IMG/VR virus record: IMGVR_UViG_2531839149_000015
Strand: one strand, 5' to 3'
Origin: a virus
Lineage: Duplodnaviria; Heunggongvirae; Uroviricota; Caudoviricetes
DNA length: 15,279 bases
Shown here: one piece after another, positions 386 to 15,279 of the stretch
Layout: every line of letters starts with the position of its first letter
How positions within the stretch are numbered: position 1 is the stretch's first letter
The notes under the pieces: model-generated
Told to the model about the DNA's origin: nothing
Databases searched by the model: none
What the model saw: only the letters and a program-made list of their open reading frames with translations
Position numbers and translations under genes: made by a program

Positions 386-1609
386 ATGGCGTTGTCTGAT
401 GCGTGGTTGCGTTCAGTCGTTGGAAAGGAACGTGATAAGGTTTTGGTTAAATCCGATCGTGATGGTCTGTCTGTCAGAGTATCACCGAAAGGTCGCGTAG
501 TGTTCCAATATCGTTATCAATGGGCAGGGAAAGGTGAGCGTCTTGATATCGGAACTTACCCGGCAACTGGATTAAAAGAGGCCAGAGAAGAAGTTATCCG
601 TCTCCGTGGTGAACTTGAGTCAAACCGTAATCCACGATTGGTCAAGCAGGCTGAAAAACGAAAAGCTACTGAAGCCATGACGGTAGAGTCTGTGATCCGT
701 GCCTGGTATGAAGCATATTGTGTAAAAAATAAAAAAGGTTCTGAACAGATACTCCGCTCGTTTGAGCTGCACCTGTTCTCTAAAATCGGGAATATCCCTC
801 ACGATGCAGCTACATTGCATGATTGGTTAGAAGTCCTGGAGCCTCTTAGCACTAAGACTCCAGCAATAGCAGACCGATTGCTAATTAACGCAAAGCAGGC
901 CCATGTCTGGGCGTATAAGAGAAAGCTCATTGAAACTCGCCCGCTGTCGGATATCACGGGTAAAGATATGGATATCCGTAAAGGTCAGAAGAAACGGTTT
1001 CTGACACATGATGAAATTAAAATCCTTTATGCTGCGATCGATGGTTCTCGAATGGTTCCTAAATACCGGGCCTTCATTAAGCTATTGCTGCATTTTGGCT
1101 GCCGTAGTTCAGAGCTAATTACTGCCAGGGTGGGCGATTTTGATTTCATTAATAAGGTATGGACTGTACCACCAGAACGACATAAGACTGGAGAGATAAC
1201 AGGCGAACCGCTAAAGAGGCCCATTATTGAACCGGTGGAGGAGCTTATAAAGAACGCTATCTCTATGAACAATGGTTCCGATATGCTTTTTACTAAGGAA
1301 GGAAGCAGGGAACCCGTTGGTCGAACATCATTGCAGTCGCTGCCTTACAATTTAATGCAGTACGCATGGAGGCGTTTGGGGCATCAATTCCCTCATTGGT
1401 CTCTTCATGATTTGAGGCGAACAGCACGAACAAACTTTTCTGATCTTACTGCTCCTCATATTGCAGAAATAATGCTCGGCCATAAACTGCCAGGGGTTTG
1501 GCAGGTTTATGACAAGAGCGATTATCTAGAAGAACAGCGTAAAGCATATCAGGCATGGTGGGAGAGAGTTGAATCGATCGTTACTTGTACTGGCCCAGAA
1601 TCTACCTGA
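386..1609 (+). CDS. int: Tyrosine site-specific integrase, P4/CP4-57 type
   Basis: 407 aa. N-terminus MALSDAWLRS...GLSVRVSPKGRVVFQYRY is typical of the P4-integrase arm-binding domain; C-terminal catalytic region has HDLRRTA and a terminal Tyr region (VYDKSDYLEEQ). RBS AGGTGA upstream. Confidence 0.9.
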   Translation: MALSDAWLRSVVGKERDKVLVKSDRDGLSVRVSPKGRVVFQYRYQWAGKGERLDIGTYPATGLKEAREEVIRLRGELESNRNPRLVKQAEKRKATEAMTVESVIRAWYEAYCVKNKKGSEQILRSFELHLFSKIGNIPHDAATLHDWLEVLEPLSTKTPAIADRLLINAKQAHVWAYKRKLIETRPLSDITGKDMDIRKGQKKRFLTHDEIKILYAAIDGSRMVPKYRAFIKLLLHFGCRSSELITARVGDFDFINKVWTVPPERHKTGEITGEPLKRPIIEPVEELIKNAISMNNGSDMLFTKEGSREPVGRTSLQSLPYNLMQYAWRRLGHQFPHWSLHDLRRTARTNFSDLTAPHIAEIMLGHKLPGVWQVYDKSDYLEEQRKAYQAWWERVESIVTCTGPEST

Positions 1610-1865
1610 CAGCTTGCGTAGCCCTGACAGTCTGTTTTGAGCGAACAGTGGACATTTTCAATGGCATTCTTGAGTAGGTTACGCTTAGACCAGAAGTAAG
1701 AGGTGATAGAATTATCAACAATACATAAAACATAGGGGATCCTTATTGATTTATTGATCTTGACCAACTTATGTGATGCAGTATGTCTTTAACTTGTATT
1801 ACTATTATCTTTATCTTTATCTTGTTGTTTCTAATAAACTTATCTTATTTCAGAAAGGAGTTTTT

Positions 1866-3566
1866 ATGCATTTAGTCACGAAATCTTATTTCGATGCCTT
1901 TTGCAAAGCATTCGCTGCGCCCTATGAGGAGACCAAAAATTTTGAGGCGTTTGTGAACTATTGTGCTTTTTCAAAATACTCAGGCGACAAAGTTGAGGTC
2001 AGTGATCTTGTGTATGAAGGCCCGGACCCTGGTATTGATGGAGCATTTTTATTTTTAGACGACAGAGCCATTTTTTCAACTGAAGAACTTCAGGAGATTT
2101 TCCAAAACTCACGTCGCGAGTTTCAAGTTTCATTAGTATTCACGCAAGCTAAGTCATCGGAGAAGTGGAGCAAACAGGAAATAGACTCTTACATTGCGTC
2201 AATAAGAGATTATCTTTCACCAGCGCCACAACAACCCCACAGTGAATATCTAGCGGACTTTAAAAAAATGTTCAACTTGATATTTGCTAATATCGGCAGA
2301 GTCAAAAATGGCCTTCCAGACTTATACGCATATTTTTTTAGTGCTGCACAAAATACAGAGGCCAGAGAAATAAAAGCTGCATTTGCATCGGGTGAAAAAA
2401 GCTTAAAGTCACTCGGGTTTTCACATGAAACATCCTTCATTATGGCTCACAAAGACATGATTCATGAGCTTTGGCTTGCTGCGGAAGGTCCAATAGAAGC
2501 TAAACTTCCTACAATAGGCTATGCTCCATTCCCAGCGGCCCCTAATATTAATAATGCCTATGTAGCTACAGTCAAAGCTCGTAGTTTTATTGATTCTATA
2601 CTTAAAGACAAAAATGGAAACCCTCGAAAAAAATTATTCGAAGAAAATGTTAGAGATTTTCTGGGAATTGATGGTGACGTAAATTCAGAAATTGCAGGAA
2701 CACTAGATACTGATGGAAAAAAAGCAAGATTTGGTTTAATGAATAATGGAGTGACAATAGTTGCATCAAGCGTGAGGCCTGCAGGGCAAGAAATTTTTAT
2801 ACGAGATTTTCAAATTGTTAATGGATGTCAAACGTCTAATGTTCTTATATCAAAAGACATTCAAGTAGATGAATCAGTTAGTTTAATGATTAAATTAATT
2901 GAAACCGATGAGCCAGCGATCCTTGATGACATTGTACGAGCTACGAATAGACAATCTAAAGTTGAAGATGCACAGTTCATTTCAACGCTAAAAAAATTAA
3001 GGGAATTAGAACATTATTTTAATGCTAAAGGTGCTATTGAAGGAAATAAAATTTATTTTGAGAGAAGAAAGGGGCAGTATAGTTCAGAAAGTATAGCTCC
3101 AGTACGCATATTTGATATCAGAGAAGTTGCGCGAGCATATGCTGCTATTGTTATGATGAGACCAGATTATTCCAGTCGTTATCCAAATAGGTTAACTGGT
3201 GACTTACTTAATGAGGTTTTCTCTTCCGATGCCCTCGAGGATGATTATTATATATCTTGCTATTGCTTGTATAGGCTAAAGGCTCTTATCTCAAATAAGA
3301 GGTTTGATGGGAAGTATTCAAAATTACGCTGGCATATTCTAACTGCTGCGTCAAAATACTGTGGTAATAATTATAAGGCTTGGGGGTTCAAAAATAAAAA
3401 TGAAGCTCTTCATAACTTATTCTCAATGAATGATGGGGAGTGGTTTGAAAAACTTGAGAGTTTAGTAAAAATAGCTATACCAGATCCGGATATTTCTCGA
3501 GACTTACTAAAGTCGCAGCCTTTAACATCAACGATTCTCAAAAGTGTTGATAGCGTACCTAAATAA
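1866..3566 (+). CDS. AIPR-like abortive-infection protein (ParB/DndB-like fold with NGxQT-type motif); cargo gene between int and xis
   Basis: Strong RBS AAAGGAG (1854-1860) then ATG 1866; the ORF-track start at 1773 is an AT-rich leader artifact. 566 aa, markedly AT-rich versus flanks. Contains GIDG near the N-terminus and FQIVNGCQTSNVL in the middle, which I associate with the AIPR family. Followed by hairpin 3573-3591. Confidence 0.6.
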   Translation: MHLVTKSYFDAFCKAFAAPYEETKNFEAFVNYCAFSKYSGDKVEVSDLVYEGPDPGIDGAFLFLDDRAIFSTEELQEIFQNSRREFQVSLVFTQAKSSEKWSKQEIDSYIASIRDYLSPAPQQPHSEYLADFKKMFNLIFANIGRVKNGLPDLYAYFFSAAQNTEAREIKAAFASGEKSLKSLGFSHETSFIMAHKDMIHELWLAAEGPIEAKLPTIGYAPFPAAPNINNAYVATVKARSFIDSILKDKNGNPRKKLFEENVRDFLGIDGDVNSEIAGTLDTDGKKARFGLMNNGVTIVASSVRPAGQEIFIRDFQIVNGCQTSNVLISKDIQVDESVSLMIKLIETDEPAILDDIVRATNRQSKVEDAQFISTLKKLRELEHYFNAKGAIEGNKIYFERRKGQYSSESIAPVRIFDIREVARAYAAIVMMRPDYSSRYPNRLTGDLLNEVFSSDALEDDYYISCYCLYRLKALISNKRFDGKYSKLRWHILTAASKYCGNNYKAWGFKNKNEALHNLFSMNDGEWFEKLESLVKIAIPDPDISRDLLKSQPLTSTILKSVDSVPK

Positions 3567-3572
3567 AGAGAA

Positions 3573-3591
3573 GGGAAGCTTATTGCTTCCC
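3573..3591. terminator. Perfect 7-bp stem/5-nt loop hairpin just after the AIPR-like stop; U-run is on the minus-strand side
   Basis: GGGAAGC-TTATT-GCTTCCC. On the plus strand it is followed by AATAAATTA (weak); on the minus strand by TTCTCTTTATTT, so it may mainly stop leftward transcription. Confidence 0.35.
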
Positions 3592-3730
3592 AATAAATTA
3601 ACACACTTATAGAACCCTTGACTTAAACTTTTTACTGGTTCTCTCAGATATCGATAATTTTATAGGTTGTATCATAGCGTGATCGTCTTCAAGAGAAACA
3701 ACTTAACATTAAATTAGCAACGTTTGCTCT

Positions 3731-3770
3731 TGGCACAGACTTGACTGTCAGATTAGTTTGGTCTGTGCCA
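3731..3770. repeat. 10-bp perfect inverted repeat with 20-nt spacer, between the AIPR-like gene and the AlpA-like gene
   Basis: TGGCACAGAC (3731-3740) and GTCTGTGCCA (3761-3770). No adjacent U-tract, so a protein-binding or recombination site is as likely as a terminator. Confidence 0.4.
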
Positions 3771-3804
3771 TAGATATGTCAGCTCCCATCTGAGATAATA
3801 CACG

Positions 3805-3999
3805 TTACTCAATAACTCCAGCAAATCTGTATATCTTGCGTGATGCCCATTTATTTGGGCAGGATTTAATATCAGGATCTGGAAAGTCAGGCCTGTATTT
3901 CTGGCCAGTTCTCCTGTTTACGCTGTTCCAGCGAAGAACAGTCGATACTGAAACGCCACAGAAGTCGGCGACTTGTTTAGTTGTCATTAAGTTGTTCAT
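3805..3999 (-). CDS. AlpA/excisionase-family small HTH DNA-binding protein (candidate recombination directionality factor / int regulator)
   Basis: 64 aa; MTTKQVADFCGVSVSTVLRW is a helix-turn-helix typical of AlpA/Xis-type proteins. Start overlaps the stop of the upstream gene (TAATG), i.e. translationally coupled. Confidence 0.7.
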   Translation of the reverse strand: MNNLMTTKQVADFCGVSVSTVLRWNSVNRRTGQKYRPDFPDPDIKSCPNKWASRKIYRFAGVIE

Positions 4000-4619
4000 T
4001 ACTTCACCTCCTGCGGCGGCTCCGGTAGCGGCATCCAGTGGGTTACTTTCGATGCCGGTTCTTCCCTATCGTCAGTAACTGCCCACCATTTGTTTCTCGA
4101 CCAATCGTAATCCCCTTCGAAGGTATCGCACTCAGTCCAGCCGTAAGGCTTCCCCCAACACCAAACATACTGTTTATCGTTCGGCATTCGCTCACTACAG
4201 CTTATCCAACCATCCGGAGTTACTGGAGAGTTGCCCGACAGCTTGTTCAACTTGTAAGTCTGGCTTACAGGTTCGGCACCATGAAGCATGGCGGCGCGGC
4301 AGGCGTTCCAGCCTTCATCAAAACCGACTATGCCATTATTTAAAGACGGACGAGCATCTGGCACCACCGGCACTGGCTTGGCTATATATAGCGGCTGAAC
4401 ATACCAGCCCTTTGATAACCAACTGTCAGCAATGTTTTTACTCCTCGTTATTGCCGGAATACCTAAGCCATTTTCTGAATGCAGCCATGCCACCGGCTCC
4501 TCTTCTAGCGATGCCAGAGCAATTTCATAAGCACGGCGCTCAATATCGTCTCGAACCTCTAGGCTGCTGATTCGTTCTTTGATTTCTTTAATCAGTTCTT
4601 TATCGGTAAATGTGGTCAT
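3999..4619 (-). CDS. DUF551-type phage protein (yfdT-like position)
   Basis: 206 aa; C-terminal WISCSERMP...VTHWMPLPEPP matches the DUF551 signature as I recall it. Start overlaps the upstream stop. Confidence 0.65.
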   Translation of the reverse strand: MTTFTDKELIKEIKERISSLEVRDDIERRAYEIALASLEEEPVAWLHSENGLGIPAITRSKNIADSWLSKGWYVQPLYIAKPVPVVPDARPSLNNGIVGFDEGWNACRAAMLHGAEPVSQTYKLNKLSGNSPVTPDGWISCSERMPNDKQYVWCWGKPYGWTECDTFEGDYDWSRNKWWAVTDDREEPASKVTHWMPLPEPPQEVK

Positions 4620-4981
4620 TATGCTCCAGCCTCCGGTGCTTTTGGCATTACTGCCCAGTGAGTGATATTGACGTTTTCAAGGTCCCCGACCTGAAATGTC
4701 CACTGCCATTCTCCGGTTTCTTTTTGCCCCCATGTATCCCAGAGAGAACGCCAGCCAATCAGCCAGCCTTCTCCATTAGCATCAAATAACAAAACACTTT
4801 CATTTGCTGGTGGCAGTTCAGTTGACACTGGTATTACTTTGTTTTCCTGTGCTGCACATTTAGCTTCAAGCGCATCGAATTTACGCACTAGGTATTCAGC
4901 ATCCGTTTCATTCACTTTCAGATCTCGCGGTACACATCTCCCACGAAGAAACCCTTCCATTTCGAAAACATTCATGCGCAT
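4619..4981 (-). CDS. DUF551-like phage protein (yfdS-like; 120 aa)
   Basis: C-terminal ...NITHWAVMPKAPE resembles the DUF551 motif; overlaps both neighbours in a coupled operon. Confidence 0.6.
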   Translation of the reverse strand: MRMNVFEMEGFLRGRCVPRDLKVNETDAEYLVRKFDALEAKCAAQENKVIPVSTELPPANESVLLFDANGEGWLIGWRSLWDTWGQKETGEWQWTFQVGDLENVNITHWAVMPKAPEAGA

Positions 4982-5508
4982 TTGCGTAACTCCGATAATT
5001 CGTTAAAGCGTTCCATAAACATCCCGTAGGCATGGCCTGGAGCCAGTGGAATCACGTTGAACATCTCTGTTGCCGGGATACCTTCCAGCACAGGCCAGAA
5101 AGAGCCATCATCAAGCCCGAGATCGCGGCGTTCGGTTGCCAGCATAATGAGATCGGCATATTTCACTGGCGTGCTCATAACAGGAGGTAACCCGTATTTC
5201 TCACGGATTACGGCGTCTATTTTTTCTTCCATCCGTTTATAGTCAGGAAGAAGTCGTTTCAGTGGTGCGGGGATGTCCTGGCAATATGCTTCTGTTGCAT
5301 CATGCATTAAAGCTTCAAAAGCAAATTCCTGCGGCACCAGCTGGCTGCAAAGCACCGCATGTTGGGCGACGCTGTAGAAGTGAGAAAGATGACCGGCAAA
5401 GCGGCAGATATTTGAAAGGGAAACCGCGATATCGTTAATAACGATGTCGTCTTTATTTATCTTGTCATAATAAAAATGCTTCCCGGAAAAAGTTTTAATA
5501 AATGACAT
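4972..5508 (-). CDS. yfdR: HD-domain phosphohydrolase (YfdR-like putative 5'-deoxynucleotidase)
   Basis: Start moved to the ATG at 5508 (RBS GGAG 7 nt upstream; MSFIKTF...), giving 178 aa. H...HD metal-binding motif (AQHAV...ALMHDATEAY). Length and position match CPS-53 YfdR as I recall it. Confidence 0.65.
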   Translation of the reverse strand: MSFIKTFSGKHFYYDKINKDDIVINDIAVSLSNICRFAGHLSHFYSVAQHAVLCSQLVPQEFAFEALMHDATEAYCQDIPAPLKRLLPDYKRMEEKIDAVIREKYGLPPVMSTPVKYADLIMLATERRDLGLDDGSFWPVLEGIPATEMFNVIPLAPGHAYGMFMERFNELSELRKCA

Positions 5509-5602
5509 TTTGTTCTCCACTTTATATGCGCTGCACCGCGCTGAATTTTGGTTAAAGAAAACCCTCGCCATCAGGCGATTATTGAGTTAATTACGTTTCC
5601 AT

Positions 5603-9985: not shown

Positions 9986-10916
9986 ATTAACCGGCTATGT
10001 ATGGGATGGTTGCGCTGCATCAGGCATGAAGTTATCCAGCGTGGCAATTATGGCCCGCCTGGCTGATTTCAGTAATGACGAAGGTGTGTGCTGGCCATCA
10101 ATTGAAACCATTGCCCGTCAGATTGGCGCGGGGATGAGTACCGTCAGAACGGCTATCGCACGGCTGGAAGCAGAAGGCTGGTTAACGCGTAAGGCGCGTC
10201 GCCAGGGTAACCGCAATGCGTCGAATGTTTATCAGCTTAACGTTGCGAAGCTTCAGGCAGCGGCATTTTCTCAACTGTCAGATTCTGACCCGTCAAAATC
10301 TGACGCATCAAAATCTGACCCGTCAAAATTTGATGCGTCGAAATCTGGCAAAAAAGCGGGTTTTCACCCGTCAGAATCTGGCGGGGATCCGTCAGTAAAA
10401 TCAAAACATGATCCGTCAGATAAAAAACCTTCTCGTCCGGACGCTTCGCAACCGGACACGCAGACGGATGAACAGGATTTTTTAACTCGCCATCCTGATG
10501 CGGTTGTATTCAGCCCTAAAAAGCGCCAGTGGGGGACGCAGGATGATTTGACCTGCGCACAGTGGCTCTGGAAAAAAATCATCGCCCTGTACGAGCAGGC
10601 TGCCGAATGTGACAGCGAGGTGGTTCGTCCCAAAGAACCGAACTGGACAGCCTGGGCAAACGAAATTCGCCTGATGTGTGTGCAGGATGGTCGTACTCAC
10701 AAACAAATCTGCGAGATGTACAGCCGCGTCAGCCGCGATCCGTTCTGGTGCCGTAACGTGCTCAGCCCGTCGAAGCTGCGGGAAAAATGGGATGAGCTTT
10801 CCCTGCGCTTATCGCCGTCCGTCAGCACGTACACAGAAAAACGCGAAGACCCGTACTTCAAAGCCAGTTACGACAATGTGGACTACAGCCAGATCCCGGC
10901 AGGATTCAGGGGGTGA
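9975..10916 (+). CDS. Phage replication initiation protein (N-terminal winged-helix DNA-binding domain, pentapeptide-repeat linker, C-terminal domain)
   Basis: 313 aa; N-terminal HTH (SIETIARQIGAGMSTVRTAIARLEAEGWL); central PSKSD/ASKSD repeats encoded by 15-bp DNA iterons; occupies the gene-O position after the cII-like gene. Confidence 0.75.
   Translation: MSTKLTGYVWDGCAASGMKLSSVAIMARLADFSNDEGVCWPSIETIARQIGAGMSTVRTAIARLEAEGWLTRKARRQGNRNASNVYQLNVAKLQAAAFSQLSDSDPSKSDASKSDPSKFDASKSGKKAGFHPSESGGDPSVKSKHDPSDKKPSRPDASQPDTQTDEQDFLTRHPDAVVFSPKKRQWGTQDDLTCAQWLWKKIIALYEQAAECDSEVVRPKEPNWTAWANEIRLMCVQDGRTHKQICEMYSRVSRDPFWCRNVLSPSKLREKWDELSLRLSPSVSTYTEKREDPYFKASYDNVDYSQIPAGFRG
10275..10349. repeat. Five contiguous 15-bp iterons inside the replication gene (candidate origin), with degenerate copies to about 10427
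   Basis: CTGTCAGATTCTGAC / CCGTCAAAATCTGAC / GCATCAAAATCTGAC / CCGTCAAAATTTGAT / GCGTCGAAATCTGGC; further CCGTCAGAATCTGGC (10368), CCGTCAGTAAAATC (10389), CCGTCAGATAAAAAA (10413) with A-rich stretches. Confidence 0.6.
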
Positions 10917-10918
10917 GC

Positions 10919-11407
10919 ATGAGTCTTTTGAATGACGTTCAGAAATTCATTGAAGCCCATCCGGGCTGTACTTCCGGAGACATTGCGGATGCTTTTGCAG
11001 GTTACTCACGGCAGCGCGTTCTGCAGTCAGCAAGCAAGTTACGTCAGAGTGGGCGTGTGGCTCACCGTTGTGAAGGAGATACACACAGACATTTCCCGCG
11101 CCTGACTGAGAGAGCGCAGGATCCGGAACCACAACCAGTTCGTGAAACCAGACCTGTGCGCAATTTCTATGTCGGCACTAACGACCCGCGGGTGATTTTG
11201 TGCCTGACCCGCCAGGCGGAAGAACTGGAGTCCAGGGGCTTATACCGTCGTGCTGCAACGGTGTGGATGGCGGCATTCCGTGAAAGCCACTCCCTGCCAG
11301 AACGAAACAATTTTTTGGCGCGTCGTGAACGGTGTTTACGGAAAAGCAGTAAGCGGGCTGCATCAGGTGAAGAGTGGTATCTCTCAGGGAATTACGTGGG
11401 GGCTTAA
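10919..11407 (+). CDS. Hypothetical protein with C-terminal PerC-like motif
   Basis: ATG 10919 (RBS AGGGGG; overlaps upstream stop). C-terminal LTRQAEELESRGLYRRAATVWM closely parallels RKAEELESKGLYRRAAARWM of the PerC-family ORF at 13738. No Walker motifs, so not a P/DnaC-type helicase loader. Confidence 0.6.
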   Translation: MSLLNDVQKFIEAHPGCTSGDIADAFAGYSRQRVLQSASKLRQSGRVAHRCEGDTHRHFPRLTERAQDPEPQPVRETRPVRNFYVGTNDPRVILCLTRQAEELESRGLYRRAATVWMAAFRESHSLPERNNFLARRERCLRKSSKRAASGEEWYLSGNYVGA

Positions 11408-12060: not shown

Positions 12061-12383
12061 CGACGTTAACTCAATGCCAGCAGCAGGTGCTGGATATGCT
12101 GATTTCTTATCAGAAAGAACGCGGCTTCCCGCCAACCAATCAGGAGGTGGCAACCATGCTGGGATACCGTTCGGTGAATGCAGCGGTGGAGCATCTTCGC
12201 GCACTGGAGAAAAAAGGCGTCATCACGATAAAGCGTGGTGTGGCCCGGGGGATCACGCTTCATACCGCGGTGAAGGACGACGACAGCGAGGCGGTCGGGA
12301 TTATCCGCTCACTGCTTGCCGGTGAGGAAAACGCAAGGCTGCGTGCAGCCCACTGGTTACATGAGAGGGGGCTGAAAGTATGA
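12057..12383 (+). CDS. LexA N-terminal DNA-binding-domain-like protein (no peptidase domain)
   Basis: 108 aa; MTTLTQCQQQVLDMLISYQKERGFPPTNQEVATMLGYRSVNAAVEHLRALEKKGVI parallels the LexA winged-helix domain; ends without an S24 domain. ATGA overlap with the Dam stop. Confidence 0.6.
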   Translation: MTTLTQCQQQVLDMLISYQKERGFPPTNQEVATMLGYRSVNAAVEHLRALEKKGVITIKRGVARGITLHTAVKDDDSEAVGIIRSLLAGEENARLRAAHWLHERGLKV

Positions 12384-12592
12384 AGCTGATTCTGCCTTTT
12401 CCACCCAGCGTGAACACCTACTGGCGACACCCCAACAAAGGGGCATTTGCTGGTAAGAGCCTGATAAGCGCGGCGGGGCGAAAATTCCAAAGTGCGGCGT
12501 GCACAGCAATAGTTGAGCAGTTACGTCGTCTGCCGAAACCAACGTCGGCACCTGCTTCAGTGGAGATCGTGTTGTTTCCTCCGGATATCTGA
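12380..12592 (+). pseudogene. rusA: Truncated rusA (Holliday-junction resolvase) N-terminal fragment
   Basis: LPFPPSVNTYWRH matches the RusA N-terminal motif; the ORF stops after ...VEIVLFPPDI (70 aa), where full-length RusA would continue with its catalytic acidic residues. No continuation in other frames; downstream sequence is unrelated. Confidence 0.65.
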
Positions 12593-12665
12593 CGTGATAA
12601 ATCGCGTTACATGACATCTCATGTTGTGCTGGTGGTTATCACGACGTTCTGAATCTGGCCTTTGC

Positions 12666-12698
12666 CTGATATTTTGCGACAAGTACGCGCGCGTAGCA
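12666..12698. repeat. Copy A of a ~35-bp imperfect direct repeat containing palindrome TACGCGCGCGTA
   Basis: CTGATATTTTGCGACAAGTACGCGCGCGTAGCA; about 75 bp downstream of the rusA fragment. Confidence 0.55.
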
Positions 12699-12721
12699 TC
12701 GACAGCATACACATTGGATAT

Positions 12722-12943
12722 TCATTTTGTGACCAATGCGATAAGTAGCGGGATAAGAATTGATAAAATCAACAGGCCGATGATCCACTTTTGATTTTCA
12801 CTGGCCTTATCTCTATTTTCATCAATCTTATCAATAATTCGACGCTCCAAGCCGTGCATATCACCGCGAATGGCAATCATCTCATTGCGAACATCCGAGA
12901 AGTGGTTGGCTTGATGTTCAATGTGTGGCGTTCTGCCTTTCAT
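12722..12943 (-). CDS. Small tail-anchored membrane protein (73 aa), unknown function
   Basis: Hydrophilic charged N-terminal region and a single C-terminal hydrophobic helix (WIIGLLILSILIPLLIALV); downstream of and co-oriented with the RHH-like gene. Confidence 0.5.
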   Translation of the reverse strand: MKGRTPHIEHQANHFSDVRNEMIAIRGDMHGLERRIIDKIDENRDKASENQKWIIGLLILSILIPLLIALVTK

Positions 12944-13022
12944 TCCTGATCCTCACCTATCGTCACCACCTGCTGGTGTATAAAGGTATTGGCCCAAGCA
13001 GCTTTCCAATGGGCACTCATGT

Positions 13023-13478
13023 TTATACGCTGACCTTACAATCAATCACCGCTTTTAACTTTTCAGCATTGCTTCCCTGACGCTTCCACGCGCTGTAAAT
13101 ATCTTTATCCCACGCTTTACCAGCTTTTGTTTGATAGCCTGCTTCATTGATCCGTTCAGCTATCACACGCCCATTATCAAATCCCTGTCGGATGGTATCG
13201 GCAATGATCTTTATAACTGCCGTTTCGTTATATGGCTTTGGTGGGATGTTCGGCTTTCCGGCAATAAGCGACGCAGCAGCTTTTTCCATGCGCTCCACCA
13301 GCCCAAGCATTCGTGAATCAATAGACTTTTCCGGCTGTCCCAGCTTCATGCGAATCGCATCAACAAGCCAGGAGGTTTTATCCCCTCCAGAAGCGAGAAC
13401 AGACCGATTAAACTCATCCTGCAATTCAGATGGGATGCGGAACGCGACCAGATTAGATTTGCTCATTGCAAAGACCAT
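13023..13478 (-). CDS. Putative DNA-binding regulator (ribbon-helix-helix-like N-terminus)
   Basis: N-terminal SNLVAFRIPSELQDEFNRSVLASGGDKTSWLVDAIRMKL resembles Arc/CopG-type RHH; C-terminal AGYQTKAGKAWDKDIYSAWKR resembles a recombinase-type DNA-binding helix. Start ambiguous (ATG 13478 or 13466); no clear SD. Confidence 0.55.
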   Translation of the reverse strand: MVFAMSKSNLVAFRIPSELQDEFNRSVLASGGDKTSWLVDAIRMKLGQPEKSIDSRMLGLVERMEKAAASLIAGKPNIPPKPYNETAVIKIIADTIRQGFDNGRVIAERINEAGYQTKAGKAWDKDIYSAWKRQGSNAEKLKAVIDCKVSV

Positions 13479-13580
13479 ATCAGTGAGTAATATCCATACA
13501 GTATATCACTGTATAACACTGTTATACGCTCAAATATCAGCCAGAAAATAACGGGCCAATCACAAAGCTATCGCTGTGTT

Positions 13581-13701
13581 GTTGGTTCAGAGCTGGGCTG
13601 TGTTGGTTCAAAATGAGTTGATGTTGGTTCAATATTTTAGAAAAAACATAATAAAAACAACGATCTTTACAAATTGAACCAACTGAACCAACTGAACCAA
13701 C
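13581..13701. repeat. Iteron-like array: three GTTGGTTCA direct repeats phased at 21 bp, then three tandem inverted copies TGAACCAAC
   Basis: GTTGGTTCA at 13581, 13602, 13623; TGAACCAAC at 13675, 13684, 13693; AT-rich spacer between; lies between divergent genes (13478 minus, 13738 plus). Confidence 0.6.
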
Positions 13702-13737
13702 ACCTTTTTGCTTATCTATATAATCTGAGAGGCAGAA

Positions 13738-14019
13738 ATGATAAGGGACAGGAAAGCTGAAGAGCTGGAGTCAAAAGGGCTATACCGGAGAGCTGCCGCA
13801 CGATGGATGGAAGTCATGCTGTTATGCAGCGAGGACGATGATCGGGAATGGATAAAGCGCCGCCGTGAAACGTGTCTGGAGAACGTGAAGCGCCCGCCCG
13901 TGAAGGTTGAGGAATTTGGCGACCTGCATAAAGCTGTTACCGAAACGCAACACCGCATGGGGATAGCGCAACCGAACGGTAACGCCTTCCGGTTAAATGG
14001 CGGCAAGAGGCAAAGGTAG
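13738..14019 (+). CDS. PerC-family transcriptional activator (Pch-like)
   Basis: 93 aa; MIRDRKAEELESKGLYRRAAARWMEV... matches the PerC/Pch signature as I recall it; RBS GAGAGG upstream. Confidence 0.6.
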   Translation: MIRDRKAEELESKGLYRRAAARWMEVMLLCSEDDDREWIKRRRETCLENVKRPPVKVEEFGDLHKAVTETQHRMGIAQPNGNAFRLNGGKRQR

Positions 14020-14055
14020 ACCACCAGAGGGAAATCATCCTCTGGCTGGCGGTTT

Positions 14056-14090
14056 CTGGTATTTCGGGACAAGTACGCGCGCGCGTAGCA
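14056..14090. repeat. Copy B of the ~35-bp imperfect direct repeat
   Basis: CTGGTATTTCGGGACAAGTACGCGCGCGCGTAGCA; three mismatches and a 2-bp CG expansion relative to copy A; about 40 bp after the PerC-family stop. Confidence 0.55.
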
Positions 14091-14316
14091 CCCAATCGGT
14101 GAGGAAATAGCGGCGACCTGAATGGTCAAAATCACAACGCAGCTATCCCCGTAAGCAGCGCTTAACGGAATAGCAGTAACCTGAATCCAGTGGGGAGGGG
14201 GTAGTCAAATCTCTACAGCCCTGACTATCCGGGACTGCCCGCCCCATCGTTTTTTTATACCCGCGAAAAATGAAATTTAATCCGGGCGTGTTTCATCCTT
14301 CCAGAGGGTATGACGT

Positions 14317-14502
14317 ATGACACCACGCGAAATAGCTTTATTGACCACCGCCAAACTGGAGCACGAAGGCCACCAGCTAACCCCGGCAGATCAACGGGAG
14401 ATAGAACGCTCAGTTAATGCCAATATAGCCCGGCGTGACAAATTTCGCGAAATGATGCGATCCCCCGCCTACCAGTGGAAGAAGCCTGCGCCGCGCAGGT
14501 AG
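14317..14502 (+). CDS. Small hypothetical basic protein (61 aa)
   Basis: ATG 14317 preceded by AGAGGG; hydrophilic with a basic C-terminus; no recognisable motif. Could be a partner of the downstream Panacea gene or a spurious ORF. Confidence 0.35.
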   Translation: MTPREIALLTTAKLEHEGHQLTPADQREIERSVNANIARRDKFREMMRSPAYQWKKPAPRR

Positions 14503-14823
14503 ATTACCTTTATTCACCTTTATATATTCGAACAACAAAACCTCTCGCAGGTCTCGCCAATAAAGGGATATAGCAGTAACTATGACCGCCGAATGGCAAA
14601 GCTACGATGCAAGTCGCTGGTTTCCAAACTTGAGGTTTCCAGGACGGTTTCAACCAAATTGCGGATTATCAGCCAAACGCACCGGGTATCTTGCGCGGTG
14701 GATGGTGAGCCATCACGCAGAATCTTTAAATGGCATTTTACGATGGGCAATACCCGTGGTTATATGCGATTATTAACGGTAGTGGACAGTTATAGACGAA
14801 AACATACGGCAGGAGATTGGATA

Positions 14824-15279
14824 ATGGCAGTTACAACCCTTAACAGCGTAGCGGATTACCTGCTTTGCTTTGCTCAAGAGCATGGGGATGTTATGACGCC
14901 GCTGAAACTGCAAAAAATGGTGTTCTATGCTGATGCTTGGTTCATGGCGCTGAATGATGGCGAAGAACTGGTTGCTGACAAGTTTGAAGCATGGGTACAT
15001 GGCCCTGTAGCCAGAGATTTGTATACCAGATTTGCAGATTACAAATGGCGCTCAATAGACGAAGAGATTGCCTGCCCTGAGTTACCTGCGAATGTGTCAA
15101 AGCATCTAAAGGAAATCTATGAGGTATTTGGCGGTTATACAGCTTATGAGCTGGAGCAGATGACGCACCAAGAAAAGCCGTGGCTGGAGGCCCGTGAAGG
15201 GGTTCCATCAGATGCGCCGTGCAAGAATGTTATTGATAAAAGTGTAACGGCTGAGTTTTATCGTTCGATGGCTTCCTAA
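14824..15279 (+). CDS. Panacea-domain (DUF4065) protein, PanA/SocA/GepA-like putative antitoxin
   Basis: Start set at ATG 14824 (RBS AGGAGA 7 nt upstream) rather than the ORF-track start 14593. 151 aa with TPLKLQKMVFYADAWFMALNDGEEL, matching the Panacea signature as I recall it. Stop is at the last base of the window. Confidence 0.7.
   Translation: MAVTTLNSVADYLLCFAQEHGDVMTPLKLQKMVFYADAWFMALNDGEELVADKFEAWVHGPVARDLYTRFADYKWRSIDEEIACPELPANVSKHLKEIYEVFGGYTAYELEQMTHQEKPWLEAREGVPSDAPCKNVIDKSVTAEFYRSMAS

Follow-up and report, generated by a model that had tools for sequence, protein, structure and literature searches.

A predicted Panacea-domain antitoxin at the end of a defective Escherichia coli prophage is paired with a conserved protein of predicted RelE-like fold

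The stretch of viral DNA analyzed here (IMG/VR record IMGVR_UViG_2531839149_000015, Caudoviricetes; 15,279 nucleotides in all, hereafter the window) ends in a gene, panA, that encodes a standalone Panacea-domain protein and predicted antitoxin. Read from the ATG at 14824, its 151-aa product scores 65.8 bits against the Pfam model PF13274 (SocA_Panacea, formerly DUF4065; E = 8.4e-18, residues 29-120), for which the gathering cut-off is 25.7 bits, placing it within the Panacea family. The product also matches phrog_1281 over residues 5-147 (E = 8.5e-36), and the RefSeq entry WP_001371753.1, "Panacea domain-containing protein," is the same 151-aa protein. A sequence search of the PDB with PanA returned chance matches only. 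A previous interpretation based on the letters of the DNA (the sequence-only reading) had picked out a Panacea/DUF4065 signature in this final gene. The open reading frame (ORF) at 14593-15279 carries the quoted motif, PLKLQKMVFYADAWF, and the DUF4065 hidden Markov model search that had been proposed as a check yielded the match given above.

The panA gene runs to completion within the window, its TAA stop codon (15277-15279) being the final triplet. Its start was placed at 14824 because the AGGAG ribosome-binding site is invariant, because stop codons interrupt the upstream frame in the homologous loci L004 and L005, and because most PanA homologues are about 150 aa long. In a five-way enterobacterial alignment (A2), the whole hexamer GGAGAT of this Shine-Dalgarno sequence is invariant. 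The frame remains open for 77 codons upstream of the ATG (14593-14823) and is kept only in the closest relatives; on sequence grounds this stretch appears to be non-coding leader. Longer gene models, corresponding to the 178-aa and 228-aa versions of PanA present in public databases, were rejected in view of the conserved ribosome-binding site and start and the stop codons in L004 and L005.

About 20 complete E. coli chromosomes match the last part of the window (13500-15279) with 99.9% identity. In one of these, NZ_CP076305.1 (locus L001; panA at 857446-857901), this part belongs to a defective lambdoid prophage, of which it forms the right end, beside a yagP remnant and paoD. The left part of the prophage holds an integrase gene, yfdPQR-like genes, cI/cro, replication genes, and a first PerC gene, followed by a methyltransferase gene, a truncated RusA gene, and two small minus-strand genes. 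The right part comprises a second PerC gene, an ORF of 61 codons, panA, a gene for a 144-aa hypothetical protein, and PRiA4_ORF3, after which a 119-aa minus-strand ORF precedes the chromosomal flank.

The sequence-only reading had noted that no recognizable toxin lies upstream of panA, and the neighbors on that side are indeed PerC and small prophage ORFs. It had offered three candidates for the partner: the small upstream ORF, a new small toxin in the gap before panA, or a gene just beyond the window end. Extending the sequence past 15279, another check that it had proposed, revealed as the next ORF the gene for the 144-aa protein, which we call panT (L001 9783-10217, NZ_CP076305.1 857904-858338; product WP_032283080.1) and which is toxin-like by its predicted fold. 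The panT gene starts 3 nt past the panA stop, leaving a gap of 2 nt. The earlier interpretation was therefore partly supported, because its beyond-window alternative was right and the other two were wrong.

To test the pairing, loci were collected by searching from the predicted toxin and keeping one genome per species, which gave 80 loci in addition to the E. coli one. They come from Enterobacterales, other Gammaproteobacteria, many Cyanobacteria, Chloroflexia, and Bacteroidota, and include loci of Pseudoalteromonas and Endozoicomonas. A PanA homologue is encoded directly upstream of PanT and on the same strand in 78 of the 81 loci (phmmer E values 1e-25 to 1e-85); in the other three, the contig ends before the upstream gene. 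Together with the 2-nt gap in E. coli, this is the adjacency by which Kurata et al. (2022; PNAS, PMC8832971) recognize PanAT pairs. Comparing PanA with PanT divergence across the 78 loci was not informative (Spearman -0.10, p = 0.40), since these loci are mostly cyanobacterial and equidistant. It is near-certain that the window closes with the antitoxin gene of a conserved PanA-PanT bicistron and that the toxin gene follows just beyond its end.

Several of the collected loci show variations on this arrangement. One contig of a Chloroflexia metagenome-assembled genome (L074) carries two PanA-PanT pairs in tandem (3534-4432 and 4596-5556). In Microcoleus, Tychonema, and other Oscillatoriales (L011-L020), the PanA ORFs are 210-223 aa long and share a conserved N-terminal extension of about 60 aa (…VWQRVE.IA..FNLSVSELLE…) that is absent from E. 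coli PanA and may be an added DNA-binding or neutralization domain.

In relatives that lack panAT, the second PerC gene and the 61-aa ORF are followed by 116 bp and then PRiA4_ORF3. When one such relative (L082) was compared with L001 by blastn, homology stopped at L001 9005 (window 14504), two bases past the stop of the 61-aa ORF, and resumed at L001 10259, 2 bp before the PRiA4_ORF3 ATG. Because homology breaks at both sides, a 1,253-bp cassette consisting of a leader, panA, and panT replaces the 116 bp. The cassette is intact, with at least 99.7% identity, in 23 E. coli genomes, and some 316 genomes provide natural, isogenic-like "empty" sites of the form PerC-61aa-PRiA4_ORF3. A short patch shared with the panAT-less relatives, TTTATTCACCTTTA, extends from the left junction to about 14523. 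The same junction holds two direct repeats, ACCTTTAT, 10 bp apart (L001 9007 and 9017, within window 14506-14523), and an imperfect 20-nt inverted repeat that is 70% complementary with arms 36 nt apart (window 14504-14579). A search for a target-site duplication found none at the right junction, short repeats being present at the left junction only.

An Enterobacter sp. locus (L003) shares a block running from 179 bp upstream of panA through panT (73.6% identity over 1,087 bp; L001 9146-10221, starting at window 14645), and the sequence farther upstream is unrelated. This 179-bp leader presumably holds the promoter/operator and the 5' untranslated region. Its predicted RNA fold gave no structure signal (z-score -1.16), and it had no Rfam match. 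Diverged panAT copies with 68-73% DNA identity occur at other E. coli prophage ends, and only the coding region is common to them; panA and panT therefore travel as a unit.

Two of the diverged E. coli loci deserve mention. In strain A34 (L089, NZ_CP028741.1, 1584-3373), the gene annotated for a diverged PanA has no intact toxin gene after it, the toxin record consisting of fragmentary 130- and 83-aa products only; some 870 bp downstream of this PanA, beside phage lysis genes, is a canonical ParD-RelE/ParE pair. In another strain (L090), the diverged panAT copy lies near yejO and is preceded by a PerC gene.

Table 1 Coordinates of the features around panA in the window
Feature	Position	Strand	Basis
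61-aa conserved prophage protein, function unassigned, PanAT neighbor	14317-14502	+	RefSeq, genome counts, phrog_7271
Left junction of the 1,253-bp panAT cassette	14504-14523		blastn, L082 vs L001
Conserved 179-bp cassette leader	14645-14823	+	Homology with Enterobacter sp. L003
Shine-Dalgarno AGGAG, 8 nt 5' of the panA ATG	14811-14815	+	Read from sequence
panA, standalone Panacea-domain (DUF4065) protein, 151 aa, predicted antitoxin	14824-15279	+	PF13274, phrog_1281, RefSeq

PanT belongs to a large family that carries neither a Pfam family nor a functional name in the sources searched. A word-indexed search retrieved 209 homologues, nearly all 140-148 aa long and every one labeled "hypothetical," and an exhaustive profile search with the family returned 1,274 cluster representatives (clustered at 50% identity) at E ≤ 1e-3. 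An alignment of 52 family sequences (A1) contains 21 invariant columns, among them H82, W86, T89, Q109, F110, G118, R119, H121, D135, H138, and Y141. The confident AlphaFold2 model of PanT built on this alignment (predicted local distance difference test score 84.3, predicted template-modeling score 0.74) begins with a low-confidence basic N-terminal tail, followed by a strand at 30-32, helices at 50-63 and 68-73, and strands at 107-111, 119-125, and 128-135. It forms a compact beta-alpha-alpha-beta-beta-beta arrangement that can be superposed on solved toxins of the RelE/ParE fold, which Ernits et al. (2023; PMC10440598) list among the recurrent toxin folds. In this predicted model, strands 119-125 and 128-135 together with the C-terminal tail carry the invariant R119, H121, D135, H138, and Y141.

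By sequence, the closest curated family is NCBIfam NF046006, the "MAG6450 family," which is named after a Mycoplasma agalactiae gene. All 52 members of A1 match this model over the C-terminal core (best E = 5.5e-11) and are therefore homologous to the MAG6450 family. PanT itself scores 30.3 bits (E = 4.9e-7) and its 99%-identical relative P0001 29.5 bits, both under the curated cut-off of 40 bits, which points to a PanT subfamily that is related to MAG6450 but distinct from it. No described function for the MAG6450 family was found in the literature searched. PanT on its own had no Pfam family match, and the 52 members of A1 searched against all of Pfam likewise gave no match even at E ≤ 10. 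A full-text literature search for the RefSeq accessions of the pair found none, and the name MAG6450 turned up in two mycoplasma papers only.

PanA proteins and PanAT pairs were defined by Kurata et al. (PMC8832971), who predicted 1,268 pairs with toxins in 88 clusters and list ten characterized pairs, nine of them validated in that study. According to these authors, PanA proteins neutralize many unrelated toxins by direct binding. Direct neutralization by standalone Panacea domains was also described by Ernits et al. Among the toxin clusters, T1 is the first listed and apparently the most populous. It is made up of "hypothetical proteins" encoded in antitoxin-then-toxin order, is spread over many phyla, including Cyanobacteria, Enterobacterales, and Mollicutes, and is often found in prophages; its tested proteins are labeled "mRNase" in Table S1 of that paper.

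A comparison of profiles ties the 144-aa PanT family to T1. Aligned with hhalign, A1 matches the T1 member of Salmonella phage vB_SemP_Emek (YP_006560566, orf161; L084 1883-2368), a distant homologue, with 95.4% probability (E = 1.8e-8, 106 columns). Cyanobacterial pairs that begin with the antitoxin and have gaps of -20 or -23 are numerous in the T1 list, and such pairs are found in the PanT family as well. The window-linked pair further resembles T1 PanAT systems in that a gene for a standalone ("noNTD") Panacea protein comes first and is followed, within a few nucleotides, by one for a hypothetical protein that lacks annotation. It differs in that the window-linked subfamily keeps H82, R119, H121, and H138, whereas all four are replaced in the tested Emek protein. 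The PanT family thus appears to belong to T1, with the limit that membership of WP_032283080.1 could not be confirmed by accession in the accessible part of Dataset S1. None of six T1 accessions was present in the NetFlax supplements, and the tested E. coli MOD1 pair (WP_077635758.1) was not found among the close homologues in cluster look-ups and annotated E. coli loci. Assignment to cluster T6 was considered as well and rejected; T6 is the MazF-like P. moraviensis cluster, which is proteobacterial only and holds enterobacterial pairs. The class is already in the literature and the antitoxin is already labeled by RefSeq, and the pair described here is a further member of a predicted class.

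A tblastn search of PanT against 50,697 phage genomes gave no match; more sensitive methods then recovered the distant Emek orf161 and a truncated stub in the Cylindrospermopsis raciborskii virus RM-2018a (CrV-01T; L085, MH636380.1). This virus encodes a PanA that is 46% identical to that of the window (1483-1941), followed at 1928-2215 by the N-terminal ~65 residues of PanT only (hhalign probability 98.3%, E = 2.3e-14), the frame of which runs into a region annotated as an array of clustered regularly interspaced short palindromic repeats. The combination may represent either a module that has been disarmed or an antitoxin carried by the phage for counter-defense.

Two groups of known systems help to delimit the pair. 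The validated E. coli PanAT of Shiga toxin-producing E. coli O31 (WP_000287252.1 / WP_000019185.1) likewise has an E. coli Panacea antitoxin within a PanAT module; its toxin is a small membrane-depolarizing peptide, whereas the window-linked PanT is a predicted soluble RelE-fold protein. Compared with the ribosome-dependent mRNA interferases RelE, HigB, YoeB, and YafQ, PanT is about 50 residues longer, its N-terminal tail is basic and disordered, and it has a conserved HPIDW-x2-T loop. Its antitoxin is a Panacea domain and not RelB, HigA, YefM, or DinJ.

We consider it probable that PanA and PanT form a type II module carried as prophage cargo, in which PanT is a growth-arresting RelE-like ribonuclease (RNase) held by direct binding of PanA. 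The two genes, borne on a 1.25-kb cargo cassette close to where the defective lambdoid E. coli prophage ends on the right, would be co-transcribed from the conserved leader and translationally coupled. PanA would bind PanT directly via its Panacea domain and keep it inactive, as in type II neutralization. Free PanT would arrest growth as a RelE/HigB/YoeB-like and probably ribosome-dependent mRNA endonuclease, with H82, R119, H121, D135, H138, and Y141 as candidate RNA-binding and catalytic residues, and the likely role of the pair would be prophage-encoded abortive defense or addiction.

A number of observations weigh against this proposal. The fold scores are moderate, and the suggested catalytic role of the invariant residues is deduced from where they lie in the model, on the sheet and the C-terminal tail, rather than from structural superposition. 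None of the 52 family members matches the Pfam models for RelE, ParE, HigB, YoeB, or YafQ even at E ≤ 10, so that by sequence profile the family stands outside the curated RelE/ParE families, and the PanT profile gave only chance matches, with no sequence relative, in the PDB. A scan for consensus promoters and terminators found no plus-strand promoter in the leader. PADLOC reported no significant defense-system match, PanT giving a weak NsnC hit (E = 0.027) and PanA nothing. Kurata et al. report on three T1 proteins: those of E. coli MOD1 and phage Emek showed no toxicity in E. coli, and the C. cadaveris protein had a toxicity that its own PanA did not relieve. The validated pairs listed in their paper include no T1 pair; the T1 class is therefore predicted rather than demonstrated there.

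The two non-toxic T1 members also speak for the strongest alternative, namely that PanA-PanT is a conserved two-gene module other than a classical toxin–antitoxin system, with PanT being non-inhibitory alone or acting in a triggered phage-defense system with Panacea as the sensor. A sensory role for Panacea has been proposed by Ernits et al., and the module sits at prophage ends among defense-like cargo, namely the AIPR gene of the window and, in relatives, a gene for an Abi family protein. However, the Emek protein lacks H82, R119, H121, and H138, which are invariant in the window-linked subfamily, and its non-toxicity may therefore not transfer to PanT; judged from the alignment, loss of these residues is a possible explanation of that non-toxicity. 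The strong purifying conservation of His, Arg, and Tyr residues across phyla and the obligate adjacency to PanA are what would be expected of an active toxin in need of an antidote, and the toxicity of the C. cadaveris protein points the same way. We therefore regard this alternative as unlikely and retain the type II RNase module as the preferred interpretation. The difference between PanT and the Emek protein at the invariant His/Arg positions offers an immediate hypothesis for mutagenesis. No tested T1 member is validated as a toxin–antitoxin pair in that study, and the self-contained 1.25-kb E. coli cassette is a convenient and clean test case for T1-type RNase activity and phage defense.

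A more speculative idea is advanced here with low confidence. The 144-aa family might be the catalytically intact core of T1, a distinct RelE-fold nuclease marked by its basic N-terminal tail and HPIDW loop and serving as a phage-triggered abortive-infection effector checked by a Panacea sensor, which phages such as CrV-01T might counter with PanA alone.

Another alternative, which we consider improbable, is that PanT is a ParE-like DNA gyrase poison and not an RNase. Still less probable is that PanA acts as SocA does in type VI systems, as a proteolytic adaptor delivering the toxin to ClpXP rather than as a direct inhibitor. The Panacea domain is common to PanA and SocA, and residues 8-96 of PanA match the NCBIfam model SocA_antitoxin (NF047745; E = 4e-16). 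However, the score of 59.2 bits is far under the equivalog cut-off of 190 bits, which leaves PanA outside the SocA equivalog, and PanT is unrelated to SocB. Moreover, Kurata et al. reported complex formation and classed PanAT pairs as type II. The adaptor model was put to the test in that study by repeating the neutralization assays with strains deficient in proteases.

The 61-aa ORF upstream of panA, which the sequence-only reading had described as small and basic, is a real gene: its product has a net charge of about +5, corresponds to RefSeq WP_001371755.1, falls in a cluster of 70 members at 90% identity across Enterobacteriaceae, and matches phrog_7271 (E = 3.3e-5), with no match in Pfam. 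Of 5,426 E. coli genomes, 339 carry it, in most cases in the PerC-61aa-PRiA4_ORF3 setting without panAT. Upstream of panAT, it occurs in three enterobacterial loci: L001, which represents the window, L002, and L003. The two beyond L001 are the only ones among the 80 other PanA-PanT loci, one being the same prophage in Atlantibacter and the other the Enterobacter locus L003, which shares just the 3' part of the ORF. The gap between this ORF and panA (14503-14823) measures 321 bp, against the 320 bp noted before; of its ORFs, which had been suspected to be spurious, none, including the 77-aa in-frame extension of panA, had a Pfam match, and that extension is not conserved beyond the closest relatives. 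Although the 61-aa ORF is small, basic, and in the same direction as panAT, the proposal that it or a gap ORF encodes the partner toxin is hardly credible, given that the ORF is present in 339 genomes against 23 with panA, stays in the same frame of genes in panAT-less relatives, is missing from 78 of the 80 other loci, and is separated from panA by the gap and by the cassette breakpoint just after its stop, and given that the gap ORFs are without family matches and the extension is broken by stops in L004 and L005. On this sequence evidence, the 61-aa ORF is a syntenic neighbor of PanA and not its partner, that position being taken by the 144-aa predicted RelE-fold protein downstream.

Elsewhere in the window, scans for tRNA genes and Rfam families gave no matches, and a Pfam search of the minus-strand ORFs flanking the panA region was likewise negative. 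At the end of the prophage opposite panAT, a 597-aa ORF (1773-3566, plus strand) adjoins the integrase gene (386-1609) and matches Pfam AIPR (PF10592, abortive-infection phage-resistance protein; E = 5.6e-43), constituting a second defense-type cargo. The two PerC-family regulator genes of the prophage lie at 10913-11407 and 13738-14019, the second matching PF06069 with E = 1.2e-30. The RusA gene (12380-12592) is truncated after about 70 codons and is partial in RefSeq. It is followed by a block (12593-13700) with two minus-strand genes of unassigned function, at 12722-12943 (73 aa, phrog_6324) and 13023-13478 (151 aa). In the relative L082, an Abi family protein is encoded directly upstream of a 147-aa homologue from this block, which suggests that the RusA side is another spot of cargo exchange.
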